Positions 4,095 through 24,557 of a stretch of 64,000 nucleotides of DNA are shown in pieces. Positions within the stretch are counted from its first letter, which is position 1. Each line of letters begins with the position of its first letter. A program made the position numbers and the translations under genes. The notes under the pieces are model-generated. The model was not told the origin of the DNA and did not search any database. It saw only the letters and a list, made by a program, of their open reading frames with translations. Source of the stretch: an uncultured Spartobacteria bacterium (GTDB taxonomy: Bacteria > Verrucomicrobiota > Verrucomicrobiia > Chthoniobacterales > Chthoniobacteraceae); contig CAIXGS010000012.1 in the NCBI GenBank assembly GCA_903919125.1, positions 27,706 to 91,705 on the forward strand, given 5' to 3'.

Positions 4095-5723
4095 ATGAAA
4101 CAACGAATAAACAATCAGAAAGTCATCAACTGGCATGCTCCACGGAAAGTAGGAGCACTAAATGCATCTTATATTGCCAAGAGAACTCGAGGTGTGGAGG
4201 GTTTATCCATCAAACAGCGTGATGCAGCGGAGAATGGATATTTTTGTGTTTATTGTGACAGGTGGAGTTGCTACGACGGCGAAAACGTGATGCGGTGTAT
4301 CAGGTTAAGCGAAGCGGATTACGATATCATTGAATTCGCAGACGGCACGGAGGAGTTTGTGAATCGTATCGATAAAATATCTGAATTAAATTGGAAAAAT
4401 ATCGAACGAAAATTCGGCTTTTCAAATCCCATACTCTTTCCTCTGGAAATTATTGAGAACGCCAATGTCGCCCTTTTTGAGGGAGGAGCTGCTCCTAAAC
4501 GGATCCAGGAAGTGGATCTCGTAGGTCACTATCAGTGCTTGAAAACAGCTGCCCCACAGCATTCATGTACAGCGGAATTTGACCCTAGGGATGTGCTGCG
4601 CATTGAAAAGGTCTTGGGCTATGGTGCAGGCTCGAAATTAACAGGAGAGCGGTCATTTCTTGGTGAGAAATTCGATGCCACCTTTCTGGCATTATTTCTG
4701 AGATACAGCATCAGAAGTTTGTCCCATTTCAATGCTATTTCGGGCGACGCGCGGAAGGATTTTCAAAATCTGGCTGAGTATCTCTTTTGTGATTATCCCA
4801 TTCCCCAATGGTTGAAATCGGTGTGGGGAATCCCCAAGAGTACTTTTAAGGGGGATTTAAAACAGGCTATACAGTGGGCGCATTGGTTTATTTGTCTGGG
4901 ACAGGGGGGCAGTTTGAGAAAATTGTCCAAGCTCATGGGGGGAAGAGTATCGGGGAAGCTCGTACACTTCCTCTATGCGGCGCCCTCCCATTTGCGCCCT
5001 GAAATGGCCTGCGCCTGGGCTGAAGCCATGCGGATTTCGGGAAGTCGGCGCGTGGCAGACTGGATTTCTAAAAATCAGGGATACGCCATCGATCCCTCTT
5101 TGGTTCCAACAAGGAAGCACGACATGCGTTTTCGAAAATTCTGGCAGCAAACGGTAAAATGGTTCGCTAGATTTCAGGGTGAGCTTTCAAATGAGGTGGC
5201 GGCGGAATTGCTCGAATGGGGGAACGTTCGCTTCAGCGAGGATTCTAAGAAAAATATCCTCTTTTCATGGGCGGGGCGCACGCCTGCCAGCGCGCTGGGG
5301 GTGGCTCGCAGAGAACTGCCCCAATTCTTCAGAGGGTTGGGCGGGACGACGAATCTTCAATGGAGCCCTCTCGGAGTGAGTTGGAATTTGGAGACTACGG
5401 CTTTTGCGGGGGCAAAAACGGACGTTTGGACCTTCGTGGAGCTGACTCAGAGCAGCGCCTTGTGGGAGGAGGGCGTCGCAATGGGAAACTGTGTCGCGGG
5501 CTATGATAAGAAGTGCATGGTGGGCATTTCGGCGATTGTCTCGGTGAGGCTTAACGGGATGCGGGTGCTTACGGCTGAGCTGAACAGAAGAAGCAAGGCG
5601 GTTGTGCAGGTAAAGGGGCGTTTTAACAGGGAGCCCACGGAGGCGGAGTTAGCGGTAGTACAGCAGTGGCAGCAGGAGGCGGTGGTAGGGCGCAGGGGAG
5701 AGGTTTTTGCCCTGGCAGCATAG
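4095..5723 (+). CDS. hypothetical protein, possibly PcfJ-like (C-terminal MGNCV..Y motif)
   Basis: 542-aa ORF in a visibly lower-GC segment; the C-terminal EEGVAMGNCVAGYDKKC...VQVKGRFN is recalled from memory as resembling the PcfJ-like family (unverified). Confidence 0.5.
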   Translation: MKQRINNQKVINWHAPRKVGALNASYIAKRTRGVEGLSIKQRDAAENGYFCVYCDRWSCYDGENVMRCIRLSEADYDIIEFADGTEEFVNRIDKISELNWKNIERKFGFSNPILFPLEIIENANVALFEGGAAPKRIQEVDLVGHYQCLKTAAPQHSCTAEFDPRDVLRIEKVLGYGAGSKLTGERSFLGEKFDATFLALFLRYSIRSLSHFNAISGDARKDFQNLAEYLFCDYPIPQWLKSVWGIPKSTFKGDLKQAIQWAHWFICLGQGGSLRKLSKLMGGRVSGKLVHFLYAAPSHLRPEMACAWAEAMRISGSRRVADWISKNQGYAIDPSLVPTRKHDMRFRKFWQQTVKWFARFQGELSNEVAAELLEWGNVRFSEDSKKNILFSWAGRTPASALGVARRELPQFFRGLGGTTNLQWSPLGVSWNLETTAFAGAKTDVWTFVELTQSSALWEEGVAMGNCVAGYDKKCMVGISAIVSVRLNGMRVLTAELNRRSKAVVQVKGRFNREPTEAELAVVQQWQQEAVVGRRGEVFALAA

Positions 5724-5773: not shown

Positions 5774-6544
5774 TCACCGCCGTGGTTCGTCTGGAAAGGC
5801 GGCTTGCATTTCCATCTCATGCATGAGGCAGGCGAGTTCGTATCCGTATTCACTCCACTTTTCAGCCCCGAGTCCTTGAGTCCAACGACTAAGATTCGCA
5901 GTAGTCCCCAATTCGAAATCCTTATCTCTTCCCCACGCCATACATTCGGACTCCACATAACGCAACCAGACGGCACTGACGTCCTCGCGTTCCAGCATCG
6001 TAGTCACACCGTTCTTTTTGAAAAGCAGCCCATCATCCGCTGTACAAAAATCGACGTTATAAGCGGGGCTCTCAGGTGTTGCCTTAAAATGGAGACGTCT
6101 TGGAAGCATCCTTTTTAAGGGTTCCCAAAAGTCTTCTTGGCGTTTGGTCTCTAATTCTTTCAAGGCATGTTCTGCCAACATAATCAATGCCAATACTTTC
6201 CGAATCACAAACTCACCCGTTTTTCCCCAGCGATTGAGATCTTTGAAAAACTCCTTGAGTGTAATAGCGCTGTCCCCTCGCCGCTTCCACTTTTTGAATC
6301 GCTCCGAAAGACGTCGTAGATCGGCATTCGTAACCTCCATACACTCAGAAGTTACTGTGAATAATAAGTTATCCCCCTGACGCTTCACCGCATAGGTGGA
6401 GTCCTCAGGACTGTCATCGCTGAGATTGTGCCCAGCATAACCGTTGGCGAACATGATCATGACCCCGAGTACACGCTCGGGGTCTATCGAATCCTGGCAG
6501 TTGTCTTGAGTGGGGGGCGTATTGGTATCGCTCATGCCGCCCAT
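5774..6544 (-). CDS. hypothetical protein (256 aa)
   Basis: ORF downstream of and co-directional with the TIR-repeat gene; no recognisable domain. Confidence 0.4.
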   Translation of the reverse strand: MGGMSDTNTPPTQDNCQDSIDPERVLGVMIMFANGYAGHNLSDDSPEDSTYAVKRQGDNLLFTVTSECMEVTNADLRRLSERFKKWKRRGDSAITLKEFFKDLNRWGKTGEFVIRKVLALIMLAEHALKELETKRQEDFWEPLKRMLPRRLHFKATPESPAYNVDFCTADDGLLFKKNGVTTMLEREDVSAVWLRYVESECMAWGRDKDFELGTTANLSRWTQGLGAEKWSEYGYELACLMHEMEMQAAFPDEPRR

Positions 6545-6800: not shown

Positions 6801-9800
6801 TCACAACCCAGAAATATCATGGGGTAGAGTGAACTTCTCAATCAAGGTCACCCCGAGCGGGCCGGGTTTTAATGCGAATTTTAGAAGCGACGTTCCGCGC
6901 ATCACTTGCAGCTCAACTTCTGGGGCTGTAGTTGTTTTTTCTAGATCGGCAAACTGCTCTTGCGTGGTGATTTCAACGCCCGCGTAGCCACTGATTCTGT
7001 CGCCCTCAAGTAATCCAAACTGCGCGGCCTGACTTTCTCCCAAAATGCCAGCTACCACGAGAGCCGTGGGTTTTAGCAGCTCGCCGTCGACTCCAAGGTG
7101 CCACTCAATGCTGACATTTCCGCGCCCGTCGTATTCTTTGCGAAGCTCTGCGTAGCCGTCTTTATGTAAAGTGAGATTCCCGTCGACGCCGAAGTAGCTG
7201 GTAAGCGTGACATTGCCGTGGTCATCGAATTCTTGGCGAATCTCTGCATAGCCGTCCTTGAGCAAAGTGGGCTTGCCGTCAACTCCAAGGTACCCCTGAC
7301 GGATGACATTTCCGCGCTCGTCGTATTCTTGGCGGAGCTCTGCATAGCCGTCCTTGAGTAAAGTGGGCTTTCCGTCGACGCCAATGTACGACAGACAGAT
7401 GACATTACCGCGCTCGTCATATTCTTGGCGAATCTCTGCGTAGCCGTCTTTATGCAAAGAGGGCTTGCCGCCGACACCGAGATACCACCTGCGGGTAACA
7501 TTTCCGCGCCGGTCGTATTCATGGCGGATGTCTGCGTAGCCGTCCTTGTGTAAAGTAGGCCTGCCGTCGACGCCGAAGTAGCTGGTAAGTGTGACGTTTC
7601 CGCGCTCATCATATTTTAGGCGGAACTCGGCATAGCCGTCCTCGTGCAAAGTGGGCTTGCCGTCGACGCCAATGTAGCACCGGCGGGTAGCATTTCCGCG
7701 CTGGTCGTATTCCCGGCGAAACTCGGCATAGCCGTCCTTGAGCAAAGTGGGCTTGCCGTCGACGCCGAAGTAACTGGTGAGTGTGACGTTTCCGCGCTCA
7801 TCATATTTTAGACGGAACTCTGAAAAGCCGTTTTTGTGCAAAGTGGGTTTGCCGTCGACGCCAATGTACCACTCACGGGTAACATTTCCGCGCTGGTCGT
7901 ATTCTTGGCGGAACTCTGCGAAGCCGTCCTTGTGCAAAGTAGGCTTGCCGTCAACTCCACGGTAGCACCAGTAGACTGCGTTGTCTCGCTCATCGAATTC
8001 TTGGCGGACCTCTGCATAGCCGTTCTTGATCAAGGTGGGCTTGCCGTCGACGCCGAAGTAGCTGGTAAGTGTGACGTTTCCGCGCTCATCATATTTTAGG
8101 CGGAACTCTGCATAGCCGTCCTTGTGCAAAGTGGGCTTGCCGCCGACACCGAGGTACCACCTGCGGGTGGCATTTCCGCGCTCGTCGTATTCTTTACGGA
8201 TCTCTGCGTAGCCGTTCCTGTGCAAAGTAGGCTTGCCGTCGATACCAAGATAGCACTGACGGGTAACATTTCCGTACTCGTCGTATTCTTGGCGGAGCTC
8301 TACATAGCTGTTCTCGTGCAAGGCAGGATTGCTATCGACGCCCAGGTACCACCAATGGGTGACATTTCCGCGCTCATCGAATTCTTGGCGAATCTCTGCG
8401 AAGCCGTCCTTGTGCAAAGAAGGTTTACCATCGACGCCAAGGTAGAACCGACGGGTGACATTTCCGCGCTCATCGTATTCTGTGCAGAGCTCTGAGTGAG
8501 CATCCTTGTGTGAAGTAGGATTGCCCTCGACGTCAAAGTAGCACTGCCGAGTAACATTTCCGCGCTCATCGAATTCTTGGCGAAGCTCTGCGTAGCCGTC
8601 CTTGTGCAAAGTGGGCTTGCCGTCGACGCCAATGTACCACTCACGGGTAAGATTTCCGCGCTTGTCGTATTCTTGGCGAACGTCTGTGTAGCCGTACTTG
8701 TGCAAGGTGGGCTTGCCGTCGATGTCGAGGAAGCAGGTACGGGTGACATTTCCGCGCTCATCGAATTCTTGGCGAAGCTCTGCGAAACCATTTTTTAGGA
8801 AAGTGGGCTTGCCGTCGGCGCCAATGTAGCACGCACGGATGATATTTCCGCGCTCATCGTATTCTTGGCGGAACTCTGCATTTCCGTCTTTGTGCAAAGT
8901 GGGCTTGTTATCAACGCCGAGGTACCGCGTACGAGTAATATTACCGCGCGCATTGTATTCCAGGCGGAGCTCTGCGAAGCCGTCGGGATTTCTGATCGGT
9001 TCGCTCCGCAGATCCAAGTATCGCACTGCGGTCATTACACCGTTGGCGTTACGTACTCGATGTACCGATGCTACGCCATTTTTGCCGGCGATTTTCACCA
9101 GCGTCCGCTTTTTGAATTCAATGAAGTTTTCGGAAATCCTCAATCCATTCCCATCGTACGTGTAGGCAATGCCTCCCACTCCATTGGCATCCCTTGTCGT
9201 TTGATTGTAAGAGTTTTTACAATACATAACATGGTCAATCAGACCACTGGCGCCATAAGCGCGAAGATGACGGACGATTTCCGTACGAGCTGTGTAATCC
9301 TTTTGCTTACCAAAGCCTGAGTTTGTAAATGACGGGAGCGCACTCTCCACTCCCTCTTTGGCTGAGACGAAGTCGACGATTTCAAGACGTTCGCCGCTTA
9401 GACGCTGCGTGCTTAGTACCCGCGCTTTTTGATTTATTTTTCCGTTGGGAAGCAGCGCTTTTTCGTCCAGCAGGTCCAACCGTTCAAGCCGGGTCTCTTT
9501 TTCGCCAGCGTACGTACACTTCAGCGCTGTGAAGCCGAGGTAATCGGACTCCCCATTGTACACTGGTTTACCCGTTCCGTTGACATAGGCAACAAGCCGC
9601 AGGCGGTTTTTGCGGTAAATCATCTGGTAAGAGCCCGAGCGTCTGGCCGCCTCCTGGGCGGAGATATGGAAGACGCCCTCTGGCATCCCCCAACGCAGCG
9701 TGAAATCTTGAAAGTAAAACGATTTCTCACGCCAATAATAATCCCAAGCCCACCATCCGCCCGTCATAAGCGCCATGGCTAAGGTTACAATCAAAGAACC

Positions 9801-10403
9801 GAAGAAACGCTGGCGCCTGAGAGCCAGTCGCTTGTGTCGCTCATAGAGTTGATCAAAACGCAGCCCCAAAATGGCAGCCACCACCTTTAAGACAATGCGT
9901 TCTCGATCATACTCCGCCATGGATGCCCCGAGGATTTCATGCGAAAGACTAGGGGGATAAGTGTGTGCGGGCACCGCCAAGGCGGGATCAGTTTCACAAA
10001 TCACGGGCACAATGCAGTCCTCACGCCCAAGTTCGTAAAAATGCTTAATTTCGCGTGCAACCCATTCCGAGGCGGCGGACTTTCGGGAGCAAAGCACGAT
10101 AAGAAAACGGCTGTCATCAAGTTCGCGCCGCAAATGCCTAGTGAGACTCCCGGCGCTCAGGTCGGTCTTGTCTCTAAAAACGGGGCGAAGAGATCGCGGC
10201 AGGTGCCCCCCGGCTTCCTTCTGAATCGAAACGGGGAGCCGGTACGCCTCTAAAGCATGCTGTAGCCATTTGGCCGTGGATTCGTCGGCGTGGGAATAGC
10301 TAATAAAAGCGTGGTAAGTGAAGCGTTGCGAACTCATGGAGGTTCTTTTTTCGCGCTTAAAGACAAAGAAACATTTTTGAACAAAGCCAGCGTTGAGACC
10401 CAA
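6801..10403 (-). CDS. giant TIR-domain membrane protein: N-terminal TIR, one TM helix, about 20 tandem 32-aa YD-like repeats, C-terminal PDZ-like domain; likely true start ATG at 10337 (listed start is TTG)
   Basis: TIR signature FISYSHADESTAKW...FLIVLCSRKSAASEWVAREIKHF; TM FFGSLIVTLAMALMTGGWWAW; repeats of GYAEFRQEYDERGNVTRxxYxGVDGKPTLHKD; C-terminal VVAGILGESQAAQFGLLEGDRISGYAGVEI...VELQVMRG PDZ-like. Confidence 0.85.
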   Translation of the reverse strand: MGLNAGFVQKCFFVFKREKRTSMSSQRFTYHAFISYSHADESTAKWLQHALEAYRLPVSIQKEAGGHLPRSLRPVFRDKTDLSAGSLTRHLRRELDDSRFLIVLCSRKSAASEWVAREIKHFYELGREDCIVPVICETDPALAVPAHTYPPSLSHEILGASMAEYDRERIVLKVVAAILGLRFDQLYERHKRLALRRQRFFGSLIVTLAMALMTGGWWAWDYYWREKSFYFQDFTLRWGMPEGVFHISAQEAARRSGSYQMIYRKNRLRLVAYVNGTGKPVYNGESDYLGFTALKCTYAGEKETRLERLDLLDEKALLPNGKINQKARVLSTQRLSGERLEIVDFVSAKEGVESALPSFTNSGFGKQKDYTARTEIVRHLRAYGASGLIDHVMYCKNSYNQTTRDANGVGGIAYTYDGNGLRISENFIEFKKRTLVKIAGKNGVASVHRVRNANGVMTAVRYLDLRSEPIRNPDGFAELRLEYNARGNITRTRYLGVDNKPTLHKDGNAEFRQEYDERGNIIRACYIGADGKPTFLKNGFAELRQEFDERGNVTRTCFLDIDGKPTLHKYGYTDVRQEYDKRGNLTREWYIGVDGKPTLHKDGYAELRQEFDERGNVTRQCYFDVEGNPTSHKDAHSELCTEYDERGNVTRRFYLGVDGKPSLHKDGFAEIRQEFDERGNVTHWWYLGVDSNPALHENSYVELRQEYDEYGNVTRQCYLGIDGKPTLHRNGYAEIRKEYDERGNATRRWYLGVGGKPTLHKDGYAEFRLKYDERGNVTLTSYFGVDGKPTLIKNGYAEVRQEFDERDNAVYWCYRGVDGKPTLHKDGFAEFRQEYDQRGNVTREWYIGVDGKPTLHKNGFSEFRLKYDERGNVTLTSYFGVDGKPTLLKDGYAEFRREYDQRGNATRRCYIGVDGKPTLHEDGYAEFRLKYDERGNVTLTSYFGVDGRPTLHKDGYADIRHEYDRRGNVTRRWYLGVGGKPSLHKDGYAEIRQEYDERGNVICLSYIGVDGKPTLLKDGYAELRQEYDERGNVIRQGYLGVDGKPTLLKDGYAEIRQEFDDHGNVTLTSYFGVDGNLTLHKDGYAELRKEYDGRGNVSIEWHLGVDGELLKPTALVVAGILGESQAAQFGLLEGDRISGYAGVEITTQEQFADLEKTTTAPEVELQVMRGTSLLKFALKPGPLGVTLIEKFTLPHDISGL
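7073..8984 (-). repeat. in-frame 96-bp (32-codon) tandem repeat array, about 20 units, high nucleotide identity between units
   Basis: Periodic ORFs with the same 32-aa periodicity appear in all other frames on both strands across this interval (frame shadows of a DNA-level tandem array). Confidence 0.8.
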
Positions 10404-10478: not shown

Positions 10479-12602
10479 TCAATCGGCTTCCGTCGTCGAA
10501 AATTCAATTAACAGCGGATCGATTCGGAAGGGATTAGAAAGGGGGAACATAAAGTAAGTGCCACCGGCGCGCACCGGCATCCCAGTGACGATGTGTTCGA
10601 TGATGCCGTCGGAGGTCGTTGCCCTGATCACTCGGCGGTTCCACGAATCAATGGTGATGGTTTCCACTCGGATGATTTTTGGGTAAATGGGTTGTGATGT
10701 GGCCCAGTCCGTATCCCAGAACCGTAGAAGTTCGAGCGTTTGATCCAAAAATTCCGCCGCTTTTCCGCTGAGATCATTTTGGCTATTATCGCTGAGTCGG
10801 TCATGAGCGAATATATTCCTTAGATTTGTGATGCTGTCGAACCCCCGCGGGGCAAGACGTTTTGCCGTGAGTGGTGCGTCAAGGTATCCCCGCTTTTCCG
10901 GTGGCGCATTGTCGAGATCCTTGGCCAACCTTTCCAAAAGACCGAGAAGTTGCCCCAGAGAGAGAGAGCTAAGCTTCCGGCTTTTGACTTCAGGAAGCTG
11001 CAGGAAGTGCTTTTCCGGGCCGCATTTATAGACTTGCAAGCAAATGAATCGGAGAAGGTTTCGGATGCTTGACTCGAGATGACTGCTAGCCTCGATTACC
11101 AGTCCTGCGCGCTCGTTGTATCCGGAAATCGGAAGTTTTGAGCGAATCGCTGTTACATGCTTGTGTGCAAAGGAAATGCCCTCCAATGGTTCTGGGAGAG
11201 GAAACCCAAGCTCAGAAAGGATTAAGACCGCAAGCTCGTCGGTGCTTACCGTTATTTTGGGAGTAAGCTTGTACTTGTCTCGGAGGATTCGACGCAATTG
11301 AGTCGCTCCGAGGCGCCTCAGAATTTCCATTGGATCAAGACGCGCGCAGTATTCTTTGAGGCGGAACAGCCGTTCGCCTTTGTACTGAAGTTCGTCCAGG
11401 AGAAGTTCCAGCTCTTGAGCCTCGGCCTCGGGTAGGGCGCTTAGTAATGCCACGAGGTTGTCCACATGCTGCATTTCGTGCCTGTGCGTATGGTTGGCGG
11501 GTTCGTGAAGCGATCCTCCGATTTTAGGGGAGGCGGGACGACTTGCCGATGAACTGGCTATGGAGGGCCGAGGATTGTGCTCTTCATCTGCGGCTAGGGG
11601 GGCGTTGAGTCCTTGTGTGCGCGCTAATTCAGTCTGGGGATCGGGTTCCCCTATCTGTTTAATCACGAGAGGGATTTTACTGACTCCTCCTTGGACGGCC
11701 TTCGCAAAGTATTTTTGTGCTATGGTCAGGAGCGCCACCACTCCCTGATTAAGGGTCTCAATCAACTCCCCATCGACGGAAATTAGACCGTGGACGACTT
11801 GGTTTCGTGCAAAGATTGCCTGCTCTACGGAAGTATCCAGACCGAGTGGGATCTTTGTTCCTCTTTTAGTGCTCGCTTCGCTGAATTCATGCCAGATGGT
11901 TTTTAATCCCTTTTTCTCTGGAAATTCGATGTTAAACACCCTGGCGCACCCATGCATAATGTCCTCAATGCGCGTGGTGATTGTCCGTATGCGAGTTTGC
12001 TCGTCACAAGCGAAGTCTCCGGGGGAGGTAGCGCTAAAAACATCTATGTGTTTGAAGTTCTCCTCCAGTGTTGGACAGCCTTCCAACGTGGCTACCGTAA
12101 TTTGGATGCCGCTGAAACCCACGTGTGTTGCAAGCCGCGACACCGCCGTCACTATGGCGCTCATGGACATTTTGGCGGTTCCAGTCCCGACCAAGGGCAT
12201 CAATACACGAGGGGGCGCATCTGGGTGTTTTTGCCTGAGAGACAGGATGGCGTCCCCGAGATTGCTGATAAAAGTGTGGGCGTCTGCGATCGAAACACTA
12301 ATTCGGGTGTCGAGATCCAAGGTGATTGCATGAAGCACTGCTATGGCAGGAAGTGCGCCAGCCGCAGTTTCAACGGTGCTTCCCACTTGAATGGGAGTTT
12401 TTAGGGACTCACGGATCGATTGGTTGAGAGCAGCAACTCCTGCGGATTGCCAAATGTCTCTAGCGGAGCCCCCAGCATGGGACAGATAGTTGTCATCGGA
12501 GGAAATTACGGCAAGCCACGGCCCGTCGCTTTTCGCGATGGCGCCAATCTCTCCAACAAGCACCTTATGGCGTAGGGGGTACATTATATCGTTTTTGTCC
12601 AC
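10479..12602 (-). CDS. Macro-domain protein with C-terminal RNxxxH (HEPN-like) motif; listed start is GTG, alternative ATG at 12584
   Basis: N-terminal AVISSDDNYLSHAGGSARDIWQSAG ... GSTVETAAGALPAIAVLH matches the Macro/ADP-ribose-binding fold (compare [25 protein letters not shown]); C-terminal NLRNIFAHDRL gives an RNxxxH motif; no TM segments. Confidence 0.8.
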   Translation of the reverse strand: MDKNDIMYPLRHKVLVGEIGAIAKSDGPWLAVISSDDNYLSHAGGSARDIWQSAGVAALNQSIRESLKTPIQVGSTVETAAGALPAIAVLHAITLDLDTRISVSIADAHTFISNLGDAILSLRQKHPDAPPRVLMPLVGTGTAKMSMSAIVTAVSRLATHVGFSGIQITVATLEGCPTLEENFKHIDVFSATSPGDFACDEQTRIRTITTRIEDIMHGCARVFNIEFPEKKGLKTIWHEFSEASTKRGTKIPLGLDTSVEQAIFARNQVVHGLISVDGELIETLNQGVVALLTIAQKYFAKAVQGGVSKIPLVIKQIGEPDPQTELARTQGLNAPLAADEEHNPRPSIASSSASRPASPKIGGSLHEPANHTHRHEMQHVDNLVALLSALPEAEAQELELLLDELQYKGERLFRLKEYCARLDPMEILRRLGATQLRRILRDKYKLTPKITVSTDELAVLILSELGFPLPEPLEGISFAHKHVTAIRSKLPISGYNERAGLVIEASSHLESSIRNLLRFICLQVYKCGPEKHFLQLPEVKSRKLSSLSLGQLLGLLERLAKDLDNAPPEKRGYLDAPLTAKRLAPRGFDSITNLRNIFAHDRLSDNSQNDLSGKAAEFLDQTLELLRFWDTDWATSQPIYPKIIRVETITIDSWNRRVIRATTSDGIIEHIVTGMPVRAGGTYFMFPLSNPFRIDPLLIEFSTTEAD

Positions 12603-13815: not shown

Positions 13816-15816
13816 TCAGTAGGGAAACGCTTTTTGGGGGTCAACGGTGAGGTCGCCTTGCGTACGGCGGGTCCATTCCTCCCAAAATAAAGGGGCAAAC
13901 GTGTCCGCAGGAATTTTAGATAGAACCTCGAGTTGCAGCTCGTGCGGGAAAAGCGGCGACCGGCCTGCCTGGGTGAAGAGTTCGTTGGCCTGCAGCAGGA
14001 TGCTGAGATAAATCACTTGGATCAAGGGGCCTTCGGCTTTGTTGAGAAGTTCTTCCGCCTTTTTGAAATCCGCCTCTGCTTCAGCAAACTTTCCAGAAGC
14101 GGCGAACAAAGTGCCTCGGTATTTCAGCGAGGTTGCAGTGAGCCAGTTATCGGATGTATTGCGGGGGGAGACTACTTCAAGAGAGGCGAAATTATCTTCG
14201 ACCCTCCCTTGCTGCTTCCATAACCGATAAGCAGCAAGCAATCGATGCCGGCTCAAAAAAGCTAGGCTGACCGGGTCTGCCGCAGCCAGCGCCTCTAGAT
14301 CGCTTCTGACTTGTTTTTCGACCTCCGCGATCTGATCCGGTTCAAAAAGTGCCGTCCACAATGCAGTGCGAACGGTCGACTTGGAGTAATGGTATCGATG
14401 CGAATCAACGGCTCCGCAATTCTGAATCAGTTGCAAAGCGATTTGGGCTGCTTCTTCCAAACAGGCTTTCGACTCCTGCTCGCACCCCGAACCCCTGAGC
14501 GCTTTGAAAAGAAGCACTTCACCACCCAGCGCCCCGATGGCTCCCAGCTTGTGCAAAAGGTAATCCTCTTCTGAACCAAAGGTCGCCGCTTCGATTTCGG
14601 CCACCAATTTTCTCCCCACCTGCTCCGCGTCCTCGAGCATCATGCGGTCCGAAAGGGAGACGACAAACTGATTGATCGCTTGAAAGCGGTCCAATGCGCT
14701 GTGCCTCCAGTTGGTGCCCAAAATTTGGCGGAAGTACGCATCCGCACGTGCGGCATGGCCGGAGTGATTGTCAATCGCAGCGAGAATGACAAGGGTCTTG
14801 AGGTAGGCGGGACGCTGCTTCTTGCCATTGGCATCGAGCCACTGCTGCCATTTTTCCGCACGACCCCTCGCCGTCTCGTAATCCACAGTCTTCCGTTCGA
14901 CTTGCGCTTCCAGGGAGGCGGCTTGCGCCAAGATTGAAGCCTCGCTCAGATGCACACCATGGTGTTCCAACGCCTCTTCCACGATCCCTCGCGCTTCGTT
15001 GAGCGAGGTTCCCCCAGAAAAAAATACGCCTCCCGAAACGCTTGGCGATGATCCGACTGTGAGCCAAAGCTGGACTCCGAGTTTTTCGGCGAGCTTTTGT
15101 TTAGCCCGCAGCCCTTCAACAGGTTTCAGACGTCCTTCGGCAATCGCGCCCGAGGCCAGCCAACTGAGCGCATCCACACCACGGTTCATCCAGTAAAAGG
15201 CGAGCCACACAGGCAGGGCAAAACTTCCTCCAACGAGCACATTCCCCGCGACAGGTTGGACACACGACAAAGTGATCCGCCACCCTTTGTTGCTGAGCGC
15301 TGCTGCGAGCCCCTCCCCGCAATCCTCCCACGATGGAACCCTCTGACAGGCTTCGTCCAAAATTACTATCCCATCTCGAGAACCGCTTTCCGATTTCAAC
15401 ATGAAAGGAACTGGAAATGCTTCCCCAGCGGCGTCCACCACAGGGATCAAACCGTGCGCCTGTTCAAAAGCTGATTTTCTTGCGTTAAACTTCTGCAGCG
15501 TGAGTTTGTCTGAATCGGCGAGAAGCGAGCACAGAGTCAGCACCGTGTGAAAGCTGTCGCGCTTGAAATCCGGTGCGAGGTGTTTCACGGCAATGGACAC
15601 GACCGGCCCTGCGTTCGACAAAGCATCGATAACGGATTTCGGCGTGTTCTTGCCATACAACCACAGTCGACAGAGCAATTCGCCCTCGACGGCAGCCTGC
15701 GCCTCAGGCGAAAGAGCATGGCCGCTCTGTAGCAGACTGACGAGGGCGTCGTCTGAAAAGAATCCGACATCTAAAAGGGAATCCCTCAATCGTTTAAATA
15801 AATCTCGAGGCGTCAT
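13816..15816 (-). CDS. large protein with Lon-protease-like (S16-like) domain and TPR-like helical C-terminus (paralog P1)
   Basis: VGGSFALPVWLAF...SWLASGAIAEGRLKPVEGLRAKQKLAEKLGVQLW resembles the Lon S16 core (DGPSAG...AMTGEITLRG.VLPIGGLKEK...G.K) with Ser and Lys retained; paralogous to 19022..21232. Confidence 0.7.
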   Translation of the reverse strand: MTPRDLFKRLRDSLLDVGFFSDDALVSLLQSGHALSPEAQAAVEGELLCRLWLYGKNTPKSVIDALSNAGPVVSIAVKHLAPDFKRDSFHTVLTLCSLLADSDKLTLQKFNARKSAFEQAHGLIPVVDAAGEAFPVPFMLKSESGSRDGIVILDEACQRVPSWEDCGEGLAAALSNKGWRITLSCVQPVAGNVLVGGSFALPVWLAFYWMNRGVDALSWLASGAIAEGRLKPVEGLRAKQKLAEKLGVQLWLTVGSSPSVSGGVFFSGGTSLNEARGIVEEALEHHGVHLSEASILAQAASLEAQVERKTVDYETARGRAEKWQQWLDANGKKQRPAYLKTLVILAAIDNHSGHAARADAYFRQILGTNWRHSALDRFQAINQFVVSLSDRMMLEDAEQVGRKLVAEIEAATFGSEEDYLLHKLGAIGALGGEVLLFKALRGSGCEQESKACLEEAAQIALQLIQNCGAVDSHRYHYSKSTVRTALWTALFEPDQIAEVEKQVRSDLEALAAADPVSLAFLSRHRLLAAYRLWKQQGRVEDNFASLEVVSPRNTSDNWLTATSLKYRGTLFAASGKFAEAEADFKKAEELLNKAEGPLIQVIYLSILLQANELFTQAGRSPLFPHELQLEVLSKIPADTFAPLFWEEWTRRTQGDLTVDPQKAFPY

Positions 15817-15827
15817 ACTGGGAGTCT

Positions 15828-16784
15828 TTATCGCGTCTCGGTCGTGACATTCAGCGCAGTTCCGTTGAGGACGAGTGAAAACGCGCCTCTGAAGTTTTGC
15901 GCTGGGACGGAACAGGAATGGCCTTTGAACACGCCTAAAAGGGAGCCATCGCCGTCTCGGATTTCACATCCGTCGAGAGCTGTGGACTCGTGCCCAGTTG
16001 CATCGAACACGTTGAACGTCGCGCTGGAACCCGCCTTCGCCCGCGCGTCGACATCAACCGACACGCCTAGTGATTCCACGATAAACGCCTGGTGGAAGCT
16101 GGGTGCCCCCTCGTCAGCGTACAAGCGCACCATCGCTGCGGCCCATTCATCGCCAAAATCGACTTTTATTACGTTTGGTTCGATACGGACCTCTGTTTCC
16201 CTGTCACCCACTGGCGCAATCCATCCCTCAAGCGGGCGTTGCAGATACGCAATTTCATTCGCTAGATTTTTGTGGAATGCGATTCGCGTGTCTAAATAGT
16301 CCAGCGGAGGAATTCCGCGCACGACCTCTTCCGGACATTCATCTCCCTTGCCTCCGAGCCAAGCGGAAAAGTCGCTCAGAATCTGTATTTCCTTCTCGGG
16401 CAGCAGAGTCACAAAACTGCTTAAAGCATCTGCCGGGACCGATAGCTCCAAGCCAACAGCGACGACGGGAGTGAATCCAAGCAGTTCGCGCAGGAGAATC
16501 GCGTCGGACGCGTCGGCCATCGTCGGATCGCTGAAAAGCGGAGCAACGGCAAAAAGTGTGCCTTCGGACAGTTCCATTCGGCGGAGTACCACAACCCAGT
16601 GGGACGCCTGTTCCTCTTCGGAAAGCGCGGAATCTGGGGTCGTTGTCCAAATTTCACCGGGGCTGGCGAAATTCGGTTCTCGGTCTTCTTGAAAGGATTG
16701 CAGCGTCGACTTTGATTCAAGAATAGGGCGCGTCTCGGCTAGTAGCCTCTCGATCGCCATTTCTTCAGAATTCGGAATATTCAT
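15828..16784 (-). CDS. hypothetical protein (318 aa), co-operonic with P1
   Basis: 12-bp spacing to the downstream P1 gene; no recognisable domain. Confidence 0.55.
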   Translation of the reverse strand: MNIPNSEEMAIERLLAETRPILESKSTLQSFQEDREPNFASPGEIWTTTPDSALSEEEQASHWVVVLRRMELSEGTLFAVAPLFSDPTMADASDAILLRELLGFTPVVAVGLELSVPADALSSFVTLLPEKEIQILSDFSAWLGGKGDECPEEVVRGIPPLDYLDTRIAFHKNLANEIAYLQRPLEGWIAPVGDRETEVRIEPNVIKVDFGDEWAAAMVRLYADEGAPSFHQAFIVESLGVSVDVDARAKAGSSATFNVFDATGHESTALDGCEIRDGDGSLLGVFKGHSCSVPAQNFRGAFSLVLNGTALNVTTETR

Positions 16785-16815
16785 AGGTCTGTAGTTTTAG
16801 GAAGAGCCCGAATTG

Positions 16816-18015
16816 CTAAATTTCCGAAATTTTGTGCTCAAGAGCGGTGTTCGACGGAGTTTGCTCTGAGTTATCGCCGCCGATGGAAGCTGAGGAGGTC
16901 AACGCTCCCCCGCAGTGATGGCGACAATGTTTCTCTGCTGCGTCCACAGCTTGTCGTCGGAGTGTTTCCTTCCAAAAGTTGAAGGCGATCCGCTCCTCCA
17001 GTGTCATGTGTAGTTTGTAGGACTCAAACTCCTCGCGCTTCAGGATATAATCATCCTCCTCAACATACTTGTAATCAACAAAGTCCGGAAGATAGGTGAC
17101 TAAAATTTTTGCGATTTTTTTTGTTTTCTCTCCAATCCTCCGAGCGTCGCCTAGTCCGGCGAGGATTACCGCGTCACCCAGTACGCGTTTCGGGTAAAAG
17201 TAATTGACATAAACGTCGCACAGTTTTTCCGCGCACAGCCGTTCTCCAATTAACTCACCTCTCTCGTAAATCTGTCCTTCCAGAATTTTTGTGACGTAGT
17301 CGGAAGGTCTTTCATCCTCAGAATTACCCACATCAAAGTCGACCTCGTCTTCGGAATCGCTTCCTTTTGAAATTCTGACAACCTTTAAGAGCGATGTTTT
17401 TATACACATCGCTTCGTGGATCAGCTTCATCTGAAGCGGGCAGTCCACATTGCCCAATAATTCCATCACGAACGCCTTCGCCTGAGTCGGCGCCACCAAT
17501 TTGCGTCCCTCATGAGCAGGCGGCGGGATATGCTCCATTTTCGCAAGCGCTTTCACAAAGCGGAGGTCGTTGCTCCTCTCACATGGCCGCTGATTCGCGG
17601 CAGACGCTGGGGACCACCACAATTCGTCGGCATGCTTTGGCCTCCCCACATTGCCCATGAAGACCTGTTTGCTTTTCTGCAGGTCCAGAAGCGCTTCTCG
17701 GCAGATATCCCATACTTCAGCCGATGCTGGATCGCTTAATTTCTTGAGTAACCGGCCCATCTGCATCCTAACCCCGGCCCTGTTGTTTAGCAGCACGTTG
17801 CGTGTACGCTGAATGTCCGCGAGGAAATCGTGGGCGAGATCCTCGCGCGTCAGTTTGGCGGCGCCTCCTTCCTTGCCACGCAGCACATGATCGGCGACGT
17901 CTTTTAACTCCCGGTAAAATTCGAGAAACGAAGCGTAGGAGGCATCCGACGGCGTGATGTCACTGTAATGACCGGCCACATAATCGTGAAAGAACTTGTT
18001 CCAGTTTAGAGCCAT
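16816..18015 (-). CDS. hypothetical protein (399 aa), first gene of the P1 operon
   Basis: 32-bp spacing to the next gene on the same strand; acidic central stretch; no recognisable domain. Confidence 0.55.
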   Translation of the reverse strand: MALNWNKFFHDYVAGHYSDITPSDASYASFLEFYRELKDVADHVLRGKEGGAAKLTREDLAHDFLADIQRTRNVLLNNRAGVRMQMGRLLKKLSDPASAEVWDICREALLDLQKSKQVFMGNVGRPKHADELWWSPASAANQRPCERSNDLRFVKALAKMEHIPPPAHEGRKLVAPTQAKAFVMELLGNVDCPLQMKLIHEAMCIKTSLLKVVRISKGSDSEDEVDFDVGNSEDERPSDYVTKILEGQIYERGELIGERLCAEKLCDVYVNYFYPKRVLGDAVILAGLGDARRIGEKTKKIAKILVTYLPDFVDYKYVEEDDYILKREEFESYKLHMTLEERIAFNFWKETLRRQAVDAAEKHCRHHCGGALTSSASIGGDNSEQTPSNTALEHKISEI

Positions 18016-18034
18016 AAAAGTCGCGGTAAAAAGC

Positions 18035-18493
18035 CTAGCGAAGCTTGTCTAGGAGGATACCTGCATCTTCCAAGAGTTCGGCGCGCAGTCGTTGGACGGA
18101 TTCCATGCCAACCCTCAAATGCGACATCGGAATACGGATCGCCATCGGAAGCAGGATCCAAGATAGCTTTCGGATTGCCGTGCCCGCCGTGTACTTAACA
18201 GGCAATGTTTCATGCGGCAGTTCCAAACAGTACCGCAGTGCTGCGGCGTCCGGTTGCTTGCTGGTGATGGGTGACATTGACACGGTGTTCCCGGAAAACC
18301 CTTCGGATCGCCGAGTCCGCACCATGGCAAAGTGCGGTGCTCCTCCTGCGAAACACGGGATCGGACCGTAATAAATGCATCCAAACTGAGGAGGAAACGC
18401 TTCGAAGCAAGAGGGGTTCATTCCTCGTGAATGGATGCGTTTATCCACATCATAATCTTCGCTATCAGATAGATCGCCCTGATAAATATGCAC
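18035..18493 (-). CDS. questionable ORF (152 aa)
   Basis: Overlapped by ORFs of similar length on both strands; no domain; possibly non-coding. Confidence 0.2.
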   Translation of the reverse strand: MHIYQGDLSDSEDYDVDKRIHSRGMNPSCFEAFPPQFGCIYYGPIPCFAGGAPHFAMVRTRRSEGFSGNTVSMSPITSKQPDAAALRYCLELPHETLPVKYTAGTAIRKLSWILLPMAIRIPMSHLRVGMESVQRLRAELLEDAGILLDKLR

Positions 18494-19021: not shown

Positions 19022-21232
19022 TTGTATTTTGTATCAAGTTGCGATGTTTTTCCTTTCCTCCTTGGAGGCTGTAGGGGCAGGTTTGCAGAGTATTTCGGAC
19101 TCAATATCCGCCCAAATCCTCACCACAAACCACGCCCCGTTCCCATGCCATCCCCTGACGCCGCCGCAAATTATCCTCATTCTGGCTCGAAAGTCTGTTT
19201 CATGTCAGACGAGGAGCTTGCCAAACATTTGCTTCAGCCCTCTACCGGAGAAACAAGCGACTCAAACGCAGTAGCTGCTGAGGTCCTTTTCAGATTGTGG
19301 CTCTACCGTGGGGGGTGCCCAGATTCGATCAAACAAGCGGCGGCGGCTTTTGGGAAGGAGCACCCCGAATTCTATAGTTTTGTCACCCTCAAGTTGGTTC
19401 CTGTCCGCGGAAAGGCCCAGGGAGAAGATGAGTTAGACGAGGAGTCCGTACTGGAAAAGCGCTCAGGGGAAAACAAAGAGGCAAAACGCGCGGTTCCAAT
19501 TGGCAGCGTCGAAGCGCTTTTAACTGAGCGACTCAGGCAGTTTCGTTCGGCGCATGGCATCATTCCTTTGGTGCTGCACGAAGGCGGCCCTGCCTTTCCC
19601 GTGCCGTTTCAAATCTCTGTGGGAAAGCGTGGCATTCACACGTTTTTAGATGCGGGTGGTACTCCTCTGGATTCTTGGGGGGAACACTTTGCGCCGGTTT
19701 TGGAAATCCTCGAAACAGATTCAGGCGTGAGAATGACCTCGGGCTTCCCAAACGGGGAGGACGACATTGCCTACGAAGAGGGCGGCTTCGCGTTGCCGGT
19801 AGCGCTGGCCCTCGACAACTTGGAAAATTACTTGGAGATCGATCCGCTCAGCGTTTTGGCAACGGGGGCCATCGTGCACGGTCGTGTGGTTTCTGCAAAA
19901 GCTTGCGCCGCAAAAGCTGCGCTCGCCCGTAAAATGGGAGTGGAGCTTTGGGTCCAGCCAGACCCTTGCGACCACGACACGAACGCTCCGCATCAAGTCC
20001 TGGCGTTGGGCAACGATCAACCGTTGCTCAAAGCGCTGGAGTTGATCCGCCACAGCCTCGCCGGAATCGGGAAGGCTCGACCGACTGCACGCCACGCACG
20101 CGAAATCATTGCGCGTTACCGTAAAATTCCGCCCTCGAGATTGCGTGACATCCAAAAAGCCATTGTGATGGTTGAGAGTCATTTAAAAGTGCTCGTTGAC
20201 GAAGGAATTGACTATCTCCTACCGACCATTGCGGACGCATACATTCTTTTGGCGTCCCTTCACAATCATACGGGGAATGCGATAGTTGCCGACAAGGTGC
20301 TTGACGACATCCAACCGCACATCAAAGGCGACAAGGTGCGCATGTGTGAACTATATGCCCACAGAGTTGTTGCGCTCACGGACATGGGGCGTCTAGCTGA
20401 TGCGGAAAAGCTCGGCCGCAAGGCTCGTGAGATCGCCGGCACGCTGGATATCCTCGTGCATGGACAGGCGGAGGCTCTCGTTCAAACCACCGGTTCCCTT
20501 GGCGGGGAAGCGCTGCTCCACAAGGCGCTGCGAACCGGCAACGTAGCCGACTCGGACGAGGCCTACGGACTTCTGAACATCACCCTAGACATCACCGAAG
20601 AACTCGCCCAATCCGGTCACCAAACGCCTCATGTGGACGCCGATCTTTGGTACGCAAAAAGTGCGGTGCGCTATGTGCTTTGGCACGCGTATTTCACGCC
20701 AACGAAAATCACGGATCGAGTCAAAGAGTATGAACCGTTCGTCGAGGCGCCGCGTCTGGCGGGGAAGTACGACATCAGCGAGGAGTACCTAAAGCGGACG
20801 CATTTTCTCGGCGGTTACCGCGCTCTATTGGCGGGGAAGCCGCCCGCACATTCAGAGTTTACCACTTGGCCCCTGCCGTCTCTGCAGGACGGCGCGCCGG
20901 AATGGTTGGTCGCAACGGCGTTGAAATATCGCGGTGCGTTAAAGGCGCATTACGGCGATGCCGGCGCCAAGGCGGATTTTGAGGAAGCGGTTAAACTCCT
21001 GCGAGGCAACCAGCACGCCACTTTGCGGGTGATCCTATGGAGCATTGCGGCCGAGGCGAGATTGAGCGGCATCGCCTCACCGATTTTTGAGCGAGTCTTG
21101 GCTGAAGGAATTTACGACGTCGTGGACTATCTGTCCTGGGACGGCTCGATGGCCGGCTTAATCGACAAGTTGCTCAGCGGCAAATTCGGTGACGCGGATC
21201 TCGCAGAGTTCCGACGCAAGTTTGCGTATTAG
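19022..21232 (+). CDS. large protein with Lon-protease-like (S16-like) domain, catalytic Ser position replaced by Gly (paralog P2); likely true start ATG at 19202
   Basis: EEGGFALPVALAL...SVLATGAIVHGRVVSAKACAAKAALARKMGVELWV aligns to the same Lon-like core as P1; shared LWLY N-terminal motif and GIIPLV/AFPVPF block. Confidence 0.7.
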   Translation: MYFVSSCDVFPFLLGGCRGRFAEYFGLNIRPNPHHKPRPVPMPSPDAAANYPHSGSKVCFMSDEELAKHLLQPSTGETSDSNAVAAEVLFRLWLYRGGCPDSIKQAAAAFGKEHPEFYSFVTLKLVPVRGKAQGEDELDEESVLEKRSGENKEAKRAVPIGSVEALLTERLRQFRSAHGIIPLVLHEGGPAFPVPFQISVGKRGIHTFLDAGGTPLDSWGEHFAPVLEILETDSGVRMTSGFPNGEDDIAYEEGGFALPVALALDNLENYLEIDPLSVLATGAIVHGRVVSAKACAAKAALARKMGVELWVQPDPCDHDTNAPHQVLALGNDQPLLKALELIRHSLAGIGKARPTARHAREIIARYRKIPPSRLRDIQKAIVMVESHLKVLVDEGIDYLLPTIADAYILLASLHNHTGNAIVADKVLDDIQPHIKGDKVRMCELYAHRVVALTDMGRLADAEKLGRKAREIAGTLDILVHGQAEALVQTTGSLGGEALLHKALRTGNVADSDEAYGLLNITLDITEELAQSGHQTPHVDADLWYAKSAVRYVLWHAYFTPTKITDRVKEYEPFVEAPRLAGKYDISEEYLKRTHFLGGYRALLAGKPPAHSEFTTWPLPSLQDGAPEWLVATALKYRGALKAHYGDAGAKADFEEAVKLLRGNQHATLRVILWSIAAEARLSGIASPIFERVLAEGIYDVVDYLSWDGSMAGLIDKLLSGKFGDADLAEFRRKFAY

Positions 21233-24200: not shown

Positions 24201-24557
24201 AAGGACTGGTACCAGAGGTCGTGGGATCTTGATAGGGGAACTAGTGCGGGCGGAAATGCTTTTGCATTAATAAGTTATATTGACTTTCAATTGAACAGCT
24301 GGGTGAGGAGAGTGTGCCGTGCCGAGAATGATGGTGTAACAGTTTATAAAATTGCTAATTCCCGAGAACTCGAATTTGTGTGCGGCGCGGTAGCCGACAT
24401 TCTAGATTTGGTAAGGGATGGAGCAGATTTGTCTGGGCTTGATGCTTTCCCTGGGGCCGTTCATCTCAAAAGCCGAGAAAATCAATTTTCTTTAGCTAGA
24501 ATTTTTTCGATCGAGTTCGTTTTCAGGGACCTTCCAGTACGCGTCTCTATAGATTAA
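21189..24557 (+). CDS. STAND-type P-loop NTPase (about 1100 aa) with unknown N-terminal domain and repetitive C-terminal region; likely true start ATG at 21270
   Basis: Walker A ILWVDGVEGSGKST and Walker B-like LMLFVVDGIDDM; 37-bp spacing after P2; lower GC than the backbone. Confidence 0.75.
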   Translation: MTRISQSSDASLRIREEVHSALQPHVFMNLNAFLAQHNLNALNGKLPFKSADELRSLFPEGNTLDQLQLLGLEERKLKRAVETLPFRSNLPTPLALSLKEFHLCTSGAESLWMACNFLEIVLKFCFAAAIAERTETCGALVMPESLVDLISERIDTPGLGEWLKLTEKAVENVGTWNSNTPLQKELLNTVEKVRVLKVTHGMWDTRNRLAHGGWFRRSPVDVDIWRGPFLDFVAKDLIWLERAELLAGAGDKVWLFRGETASVYHSWNHWRRGAIHAGMCRIISSNLGADLDVSPFAATSPAVPLPLMYARWKGSCIEYISYGGLVEWVKEPNRLNNDCFRKNFIRPSFKWLSTPFPDFRDKGQDAISQTESCRFLVNIVDQRIKKGGGGILWVDGVEGSGKSTIMAHLAKRRIDQRDLGKVLTFAYRFESSSFLSRAEYFLHYIYLRLSSAHWNPSTQKWSVSKGTNEAFDPACTVSAEDILDLFKKKTEDPLSMMLFVVDGIDDMIAKHYWFLAEVLSPLTKDSRILFVVSGMHGTPVAYNFRMNGASSVFRDGLPPLTLREFTSVLCTACGDSSTKLLDLQTQAERESHAFAENPEGVAGEEERKLLELQTRAERKSHEFAENPERVAREEKRIHSFGFLAEAHRKGKGLPLYASYLAEDLRSGVIKIGEVDALPEGIEGYHNLQLARTGVLEMLSPLPASALRAAFGGFVAATEMRLEGNRTVDARGKDAARALIQPVDEYLARASVLALMATDSNAVTVDEISQRLGQTVLRGQNAEERSAVLERALEAVSPMLKMAPIDESGREGFELANQSIRRHLNSLPGIQQMAHRFKRRSDDAPPSEPREPKRVDDIPQWERPREDRIDDRPFEERRNTSEMEERVAACISRLESIKRCSEVSEFDLDLYGSGSNDWVEHFFDGTIAEVVAILQRGRSLALTPSKAFKALGQVGVTSDFKWSDHLRDAPSILRNFTWSEPSVTQRSMHPSYRYHLHPSYRYHFGKDWYQRSWDLDRGTSAGGNAFALISYIDFQLNSWVRRVCRAENDGVTVYKIANSRELEFVCGAVADILDLVRDGADLSGLDAFPGAVHLKSRENQFSLARIFSIEFVFRDLPVRVSID
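22922..23096 (+). repeat. in-frame tandem duplication, 2 x about 87 bp (29-aa unit KLLDLQTQAERESHAFAENPEGVAGEEER)
   Basis: Two adjacent copies about 90% identical at nucleotide level inside the STAND gene. Confidence 0.7.
24149..24196 (+). repeat. perfect 24-bp tandem duplication x2 (HPSYRYHL HPSYRYHF) inside the STAND gene
   Basis: gcaccccagttatcgataccattt occurs twice in direct succession. Confidence 0.85.

Follow-up and report, generated by a model that had tools for sequence, protein, structure and literature searches.

A predicted outside-in TIR protein with a YD-repeat and PDZ ectodomain in a verrucomicrobial genome

Can a bacterial TIR protein be built to sense events outside the cytoplasm? 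This question is raised by a minus-strand open reading frame (ORF) at 6801..10403 of the window, the 64,000-nt stretch of DNA from an uncultured Spartobacteria bacterium (Verrucomicrobiota) analysed here (contig CAIXGS010000012.1, positions 27,706 to 91,705). A first-pass annotation had proposed that its product mirrors Toll-like receptors, with a cytoplasmic TIR domain, one membrane-spanning helix and YD-like repeats in place of leucine-rich repeats (LRRs). The topology statistics and YD-repeat matches described below, together with the lack of any LRR match in the protein, support that proposal. We see the protein as a TIR sensor or enzyme whose outside-in layout is without precedent. Its family, already widespread in sequence databases, may be the first among bacterial TIR proteins to be built for sensing outside the cytoplasm.

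Domain architecture and predicted topology

In its longest form, from a TTG at 10403, the ORF encodes 1200 amino acids. Translation probably begins at the first in-frame ATG, at 10337, giving a 1178-residue protein that begins MSSQRF, in agreement with the public gene call P0001. Residues are numbered below from this ATG unless ORF numbering is named; the ORF number is the ATG number plus 22. The ORF and the parts list with coordinates that the first-pass annotation gave are correct, and the features of the gene are as follows.

6801..10337, minus strand: gene for the TIR, transmembrane (TM), YD-repeat and PDZ protein, 1178 residues from the ATG
9867..10316, minus strand: TIR domain, predicted to be cytoplasmic, residues 8-157
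10050..10052, minus strand: Glu96 in 'SEWVAREI', putative catalytic Glu of NAD+-cleaving (NADase-type) TIR domains, codon verified
9744..9848, minus strand: basic juxtamembrane stretch ERHKRLALRRQR, then the predicted single TM helix FFGSLIVTLAMALMTGGWWAW, with the TM core at 9744..9809
9021..9725, minus strand: membrane-proximal outer region, residues 205-439, with a conserved 'Y..D....WG.PEG' motif followed by predicted degenerate beta-hairpins (family consensus and AlphaFold2 model)
7101..9020, minus strand: 20 tandem 32-residue YD-type hairpin repeats, residues 440-1079, variable at unit positions 18, 20 and 30-32
about 7965..8156, 7677..7772 and 7485..7580, minus strand: repeat units 10, 13 and 15
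6828..7076, minus strand: C-terminal PDZ domain, residues 1088-1170

The public copy of the protein, P0001 (NCBI/ENA, on a contig of 91,945 bp), is 913 residues long and identical through repeat unit 13, after which it continues into an unrelated 75-residue tail that is encoded nowhere in the window. The public assembly seems to be broken or misjoined within the repeat array, which would explain why that record is without seven repeats and the PDZ domain.

The N-terminal TIR domain, placed at about ORF residues 25 to 170 by the first-pass annotation, is recognized well above the Pfam cut-offs, both as TIR_2 (E 6.7e-15, 56.1 bits versus a cut-off of 28, ORF residues 33-142) and as ThsB_TIR (E 4.9e-10, 40.1 bits versus 21.2). 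The best PADLOC model on the protein, SAVED_TIR (1.2e-8), spans the TIR part only; the PADLOC ThsB matches are weak (E 0.0013 and 0.032). A full-length AlphaFold2 model, for which 65 family sequences were used, reaches good confidence, with a mean predicted local distance difference test (pLDDT) score of 84 and a predicted template-modelling score of 0.75. It consists of a TIR domain (residues 1-157), a long helix (161-201) that contains the hydrophobic segment, uninterrupted beta-hairpins (205-1081) and a small alpha/beta domain (1090-1169). The modelled N-terminus has the flavodoxin-like TIR fold and, in a Foldseek search against the PDB, matches PdTIR, AbTir, BtTir, BtpA and SARM1. Glu96 is invariant across the 65 family members and aligns with the Glu of WCLEEL in Roq1, WCLDEL in AT1G72930 and WPAREL in BtpA, a position that we take, from established knowledge of TIR NADases, to be the catalytic one. 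This putative catalytic residue stands in a W-x-x-x-E motif, as in TIR domains of the NADase type.

The outer part of the protein is dominated by its repeats. Tandem Repeats Finder reports a single array (7079..8984; period 96 nt, 19.9 copies, 74% matches, indels absent), and the number of 32-residue units recovered with a hidden Markov model made from them is exactly 20 (ORF residues 462-1101). The first-pass count of about 20 units of 32 residues thus stands, but its description of them as near-identical does not: mean pairwise identity is 62% in protein and about 75% in DNA, with a synonymous divergence (dS) of about 0.7, so the array is old. Units 10, 13 and 15, which are non-adjacent and of a 'TLTS' type, alone reach 88-94% DNA identity, suggesting recent duplication or gene conversion among these three in an otherwise old array. 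Constraint within the unit is uneven. At the structural positions Y1, G3, D5, G6, P8, G14, E17, R19, Y22, D23, R25, G26 and N27, the ratio of non-synonymous to synonymous substitution (dN/dS) across the window's array is 0.17; at positions 18, 20, 30, 31 and 32, which lie on two paired strands of each hairpin, it is 0.8, nearly unconstrained. The variable positions fit a single, predicted binding face.

Both profile and fold identify these units as YD/RHS-type repeats (TIGR01643, 48 bits versus a cut-off of 15.8; RHS_repeat, 27.7 bits versus 22). The AlphaFold2 model folds them into beta-hairpins, where the first-pass annotation had expected a beta-solenoid or a beta-hairpin stack for YD-like repeats, and Foldseek matches this region to Rhs cores of type VI secretion systems (T6SS; E 9e-30), RhsA, teneurins 2, 3 and 4, the BC components of Tc toxins and SGS1. 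Global template-modelling scores to Rhs shells are only 0.2-0.3, so a closed, cocoon-like shell is not established. The membrane-proximal region of about 250 residues, which the first-pass annotation had taken to be non-repetitive, is instead modelled as a degenerate version of the same hairpin type, its secondary structure being all hairpins apart from two low-confidence loops. The outer part would accordingly be one continuous YD-type beta-hairpin sheet, formed by the degenerate region and the 20 regular units and capped by the PDZ domain.

The identity of the C-terminal domain as PDZ, suggested by the first-pass annotation, is confirmed by family profile and predicted fold, though the protein's own score lies below the Pfam cut-off (17.6-19.1 bits versus 27). 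A profile of the family's C-terminal domains matches the PDZ domains of DegP, DegQ, DegS, AlgW and RseP, with a best E of 3.4e-14 (DegP); Pfam PDZ_6 is matched in 17 of the 22 aligned family members (best 9.3e-13); and the modelled C-terminus matches the PDZ domains of RseP and MucP in the PDB. With an iterated profile, the domain is found in about 40 of 92 repeat-bearing relatives.

We inferred the topology from family statistics on hydrophobic segments and their flanking charge. The sole strongly hydrophobic stretch outside the C-terminal domain lies at ORF residues 199-220, directly after ERHKRLALRRQR, where the first-pass annotation had placed a single hydrophobic helix, and nearly all of the 120 retrieved relatives have one such segment right behind the head domain. 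Four observations support an N-in/C-out orientation, and with it the cytoplasmic TIR domain and extracytoplasmic repeats of the first-pass annotation. First, the flanking charges follow the positive-inside rule: lysine and arginine are more frequent in the 15 residues N-terminal of the segment than in the 15 after it in 85 of 88 repeat-bearing relatives, with means of 6.3 and 1.9. Second, the protein has no N-terminal signal peptide. Third, relatives carry kinase, nSTAND1 and FHA+TIR heads in the same place, which are ATP-dependent or phospho-signalling domains, so the head side should be cytoplasmic. Finally, the nearest relatives of the C-terminal PDZ domain are periplasmic PDZ domains. The resulting single-pass type II topology, a supported prediction and not a measurement, would leave about 980 residues outside the cytoplasmic membrane, probably in the periplasm of the diderm verrucomicrobial host; in the monoderm Clostridia and Coriobacteriia the outer domain would be surface-exposed. 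Proteins that match housekeeping genes of the window at 90% identity or above carry the labels Verrucomicrobiota or Chthoniobacteraceae. We hold the architecture and topology with high confidence.

A modular family and its neighbouring genes

The protein belongs to a large family. A protein search returned 194 matches, about 92 of which share the repeats, and at least 493 matches were confirmed in species-representative genomes, scanned with a pattern that excludes the window's own gene (H in place of [YFD]). The hosts among the matches listed are Planctomycetota, Verrucomicrobiota (including Akkermansia), Lentisphaerota, Kiritimatiellia, Bacteroidota, Alphaproteobacteria, Desulfobacterota, Clostridia and Coriobacteriia. 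Multiple copies per genome and tandem paralogs are common, the number of units per protein ranges from 1 to 30 with a median of 12, and 37 of 91 proteins carry the PDZ domain. Database names of the relatives are generic ('TIR domain-containing protein').

Both ends of the protein are exchanged within this family. The common TM helix, 'Y..DY..WG.PEG' motif and YD repeats, often with the PDZ domain, follow a Ser/Thr kinase head in P0057 and P0086, an nSTAND1 NTPase head in P0006, P0013 and P0044, and an FHA+TIR head in P0089. Conversely, the TIR-linker-TM module alone, at 40-46% identity, precedes TPR or WD40 repeats in P0093-P0120. The module of TIR domain, 'VVAxxLGxxFDxLxxR' linker and TM helix is common to these proteins and to one encoded at another locus (L085:204-1841), all with a non-YD outer part. 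The family thus looks modular, with one ectodomain wired to kinase or STAND heads and one TIR-TM module wired to TPR, WD40 or other outer domains, and the comparison suggests that membrane TIR proteins with exchangeable C-terminal domains form a broader superfamily.

If the TIR domain signals to a second protein, the gene directly upstream in the window is a candidate reader of that signal. It and its parts are as follows.

10479..12602, minus strand: 707-residue protein, candidate signal-reading partner, in which a Macro-like N-terminal domain is followed by a helical region and, at the C-terminus, by a conserved module
12153..12512, minus strand: putative Macro domain of that protein, its own score being below the cut-off
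11790..11807, minus strand: second motif of that protein, RNQVVH, less conserved
10803..10820, minus strand: R595-N-I-F-A-H600 in the C-terminal module, a HEPN-like signature, unproven

This gene ends 141 nt before the ATG of the TIR gene, on the same strand, and no terminator-like site was found in a scan between them; scans of the region for sigma-70 promoters and terminators performed at or near chance level. An exhaustive HMMER search finds 484 relatives of the 707-residue protein, an uncharacterized family; 48 of the 59 relatives sampled match the Macro domain, and their consensus carries the Macro signature. One relative, P0122, is 67% identical to the neighbour and passes the Macro cut-off at 22.8 bits. 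It is encoded directly downstream of a 545-residue TIR protein in L085. Over TIR domain, linker and TM helix that protein is 38% identical to the window protein (E 1e-28), but its outer region, of about 320 residues, is unrelated. The pairing of a membrane TIR protein with a Macro protein therefore recurs with a swapped sensor domain.

The neighbour's C-terminal module, about 330 residues long, has a conserved beta-rich tail (…DRWGRR…YFMHPLSNPxRVDPILV). In the 59 relatives, R595-N-x3-H600 is near-invariant and E510 is invariant. Matches to HEPN_RiboL-PSP are faint (E 0.059-0.32), no sequence relative of the module was found in the PDB, and the module is absent from Pfam and PADLOC; its assignment to HEPN is an unproven lead. 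A further relative of the 707-residue protein, in L089, sits between a PLD-helicase (DUF3427) gene and SbcCD-like genes.

Other neighbours recur across the family. We clustered all flanking ORFs across 84 family loci; homologs of the 18 ORFs that flank the window gene are encoded beside none of them. At 17 of the 84 loci the TIR gene adjoins, and often overlaps, a gene for a multi-TM protein (about 650 residues) that combines TrkA_N and RyR domains and whose profile matches RyR repeats at E 3e-23. At seven of these loci (L024, L042, L045, L052, L063, L065 and L076) that gene is part of a four-gene block that is kept in a subclade and comprises the TIR-YD gene, the TrkA_N-RyR gene, an M48 peptidase with a zinc ribbon and a 166-residue zinc-ribbon protein; the other 10 have the TrkA_N-RyR gene. 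The block occurs in gut Bacteroidota, Clostridia, Kiritimatiellae and Lentisphaeria. A SLOG (YpsA)/DUF4231 protein of about 570-690 residues is found at 8 of the 84 loci, directly adjacent in L019, L038, L046, L078 and L084 and near the TIR gene in L002, L003 and L064; we presume that DUF4231 belongs with the SLATT domains. In L002, a patatin phospholipase gene and two DUF4344 genes lie between the TIR-YD and SLOG/DUF4231 genes.

Elsewhere in the window, the TIR gene is flanked on its 3′ side by genes for a PcfJ-like protein (4095..5723, plus strand, E 7e-10) and a 256-residue protein with no match (5774..6544, minus strand). Mobile elements often carry PcfJ-like proteins, so this neighbour is a hint of accessory DNA. 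A tightly packed run of four genes on the strand of the Macro-TIR pair lies directly upstream of it (13816..18493, minus strand) and encodes proteins of 666 (weak TPR), 318, 399 and 152 residues, with no Pfam or PADLOC assignment. Farther on (19022..24557, plus strand), a gene for a 736-residue protein without a family match overlaps the start of a gene for a 1122-residue STAND-type NTPase (NPHP3_N, E 1.7e-7); neither protein has a PADLOC match, and they could be another conflict-type pair in the same variable region.

A proposed receptor mechanism and its alternatives

Starting from the domain identities, predicted topology, family breadth and neighbour statistics, we infer enzymatic activity, signalling to partners, a ligand and any immune role, and propose that the protein is a type II outside-in receptor. 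An envelope ligand, such as a protein that is foreign or in the wrong place, or the free C-terminus of a peptide, would bind the variable repeat face, the PDZ domain or both. Binding would cluster or re-orient receptors through the long linker-TM helix, upon which the TIR domains would assemble and cleave NAD+. The result would be either direct NAD+ depletion or an ADP-ribose-derived signal, read in the window by the adjacent Macro-domain protein and in relatives by the SLOG/DUF4231 (SLATT-like) or multi-TM TrkA_N-RyR neighbours. The outcome would be growth arrest or death, through a Thoeris-like pathway triggered from outside the cytoplasm. Receptor-like evolution speaks for this proposal, in the form of variability at the five unit positions, the spread in unit number and the paralogs. 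Taken as a whole, we regard it as about evenly poised between right and wrong.

Several points weigh against this proposal. NADase activity, topology and ligand are all predictions, and the hydrophobicity of the window protein's own TM helix is modest (1.47), whereas homologous helices reach up to 2.5-2.9. At the variable repeat positions dN/dS is below 1, so positive selection is unproven. Most family loci have no conserved partner, which rules out signalling to a second protein as a family-wide mechanism. The effector role of the Macro neighbour is that of a candidate: its own Pfam Macro score is 17.4-18.8 bits versus a cut-off of 22, its AlphaFold2 model (5 sequences) is unusable, with a pLDDT of 41, and its helical prediction is of low confidence. 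None of the 84 family loci has a homolog of it alongside, and its more distant Macro-module relatives adjoin other partners, not TIR genes. The resemblance of the TrkA_N-RyR protein to the channel of Thoeris type X is presumed, by analogy. PADLOC is silent for 13 of the 14 window proteins tested, the TIR protein alone matching, on its TIR domain; with no match among the neighbours, a defence-island context is not shown.

The scarcity of conserved partners speaks for the leading alternative, that of a stand-alone suicide or dormancy receptor with the same outside-in architecture, in which the TIR domain itself is the effector through NAD+ depletion and the neighbours are incidental or modulatory. 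The gene is often alone, the Glu at the catalytic position is invariant, and NAD+-depleting TIR effectors are established in SARM1 and AbTir, both of which are among the fold matches. Such a receptor would not lead one to expect predicted nucleotide-binding membrane proteins immediately adjacent, and often overlapping, at about 29% of loci across phyla, nor a Macro partner that recurs beside a second TIR-TM gene, and we consider it unlikely, if the most credible of the alternatives.

Somewhat less probable again is a non-immune receptor for envelope signalling or cell-cell recognition, comparable to teneurins or DegS, with the TIR domain as a regulatory enzyme or scaffold in normal physiology. 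Teneurins share the type II topology and outside YD repeats, the PDZ domain is closest to the envelope-stress PDZ domains of DegS, DegP and RseP, an M48 peptidase is co-conserved in one subclade, sister proteins carry Ser/Thr kinase heads typical of physiological sensors, and the window is without PADLOC or defence-island context. Nevertheless, the family is patchily distributed, with multiple and tandem paralogs, and its repeats vary in number and on one face, all of which suggests diversifying recognition rather than housekeeping. STAND heads, as in some relatives, and SLATT-like neighbours are also typical features of conflict systems.

The moderate hydrophobicity of the helix leaves room for a soluble or peripheral cytoplasmic protein whose helix does not span the membrane, akin to TIR-WD40 or TIR-TPR STAND-like sensors. 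This is very improbable in view of the higher scores of homologous helices, the strong charge bias in 85 of 88 relatives, the kinship of the PDZ domain to periplasmic ones and the kinase-headed relatives, which are laid out as classical receptor kinases. Least probable of all is a polymorphic or surface toxin with a Rhs/YD shell and the TIR NADase as its cargo for other cells: in structure, T6SS Rhs cores and the shells of Tc toxins match it best, and NADase toxins are known in Rhs/YD-shell systems, but we reject this because the protein has no DPxGL autoproteolysis motif (neither DP.GL nor P....DP.G), its C-terminus is a PDZ domain instead of a toxin, its TIR domain is N-terminal on the cytoplasmic side of the TM helix, PAAR, VgrG and secretion domains are all missing from the Pfam and NCBIfam matches, and the 84 loci show no conserved neighbour that resembles an immunity gene.

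If the outside-in receptor proposal is true, bacteria can couple TIR/NAD+ signalling to periplasmic or surface events before the cytoplasm is reached; possible triggers are phage adsorption, genome ejection, injected toxins, predators and envelope damage. The protein would then offer a testable prokaryotic parallel to the logic of Toll-like receptors, and the YD-repeat fold, known as a toxin cocoon, would gain a new use as a receptor. Hundreds of species have members of the family, among them abundant gut Bacteroidota, Clostridia and Akkermansia, and because head, ectodomain and partner are swapped as modules it lends itself to experiment. We advance tentatively the wider claim that the window protein is a founding example of widespread, undescribed and modular outside-in TIR receptors, in which a diversifying YD-hairpin/PDZ ectodomain would detect extracytoplasmic ligands and feed cytoplasmic NADase signalling. 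Such single-pass receptors would be a functional counterpart of Toll-like receptors in prokaryotes, and through downstream Macro, SLATT-like or channel-like effectors Thoeris-type immunity would come to include a watch over the cell envelope.

Comparison with known systems

The first-pass annotation held that this is not a characterized bacterial TIR architecture. In keeping with that, no description of a TIR-TM-YD-PDZ protein or of an extracytoplasmic bacterial TIR sensor was found in the full-text literature searched; subscription journals lay mostly outside its scope, and an earlier mention is possible. Targeted reading of Kaur 2020 (PMC7159879), Kaur 2021 (PMC8195603), a preprint on Thoeris types I-XI (10.64898/2025.12.03.692087) and an article on bacterial teneurins (PMC13018210) brought up no such sensor. 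For Thoeris types I-XI, SpbK, TIR-SAVED and TIR-STING alike, the literature searched does not describe an extracytoplasmic sensor.

The closest defence counterpart is Thoeris. The window protein shares with it an enzyme-type TIR domain with a putative catalytic Glu and the weak ThsB_TIR and PADLOC ThsB matches, and its Macro neighbour, like the SLOG/DUF4231 or channel-like neighbours of relatives, would belong to a class of Thoeris effectors: Macro, SLATT and ion-channel proteins are, according to the 2025 preprint, effectors of types II, VII and X (10.64898/2025.12.03.692087). The preprint makes no mention of periplasmic sensing or repeat-bearing TIR sensors and uses 'transmembrane' for effectors only. 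In the literature searched, ThsB is not described as membrane-anchored or as having extracytoplasmic domains, whereas the window TIR protein is predicted to be anchored with about 980 residues outside; and, unlike Thoeris, most family members have no adjacent effector.

The architecture resembles that of Toll-like receptors in having one TM helix between a repeat-built ectodomain and a cytoplasmic TIR domain, and in the variability on one face of the repeats. It differs in that the TIR domain is N-terminal, in the opposite, type II orientation; the repeats are YD hairpins rather than LRRs; a PDZ domain follows at the C-terminus; and the TIR domain has a NADase-type Glu, whereas that of Toll-like receptors is a pure scaffold. 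Homology between the two is confined to the TIR domain.

Teneurins and bacterial teneurin-like proteins are type II single-pass proteins with a YD-repeat beta-sheet outside, the arrangement predicted here. In Pfam and NCBIfam scans, however, the window protein has no EGF, NHL, FN-plug, ABD or Tox-GHH domain, and it has no encapsulated C-terminal toxin; its intracellular domain is a TIR domain and its repeats form a regular 32-residue array. Nor, in contrast to Rhs and Tc BC-component shells, does it have a DPxGL aspartyl protease motif, toxin cargo or a secretion-associated N-terminus. The periplasmic PDZ sensors DegS, DegP, RseP and MucP give the best profile and fold matches to its C-terminal domain and share the predicted periplasmic location, but here the PDZ domain is not attached to a protease, stands at the distal end of a repeat array and has its conserved G-x-LG[IV] element at the C-terminal end of the domain.

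Finally, receptor Ser/Thr kinases of the PknB type have the same overall plan, an N-terminal cytoplasmic head, one TM helix and a C-terminal extracytoplasmic repeat sensor. The head here is a TIR domain and the sensor consists of YD repeats and PDZ instead of PASTA; direct relatives of the window ectodomain, P0057 and P0086, carry such kinase heads.

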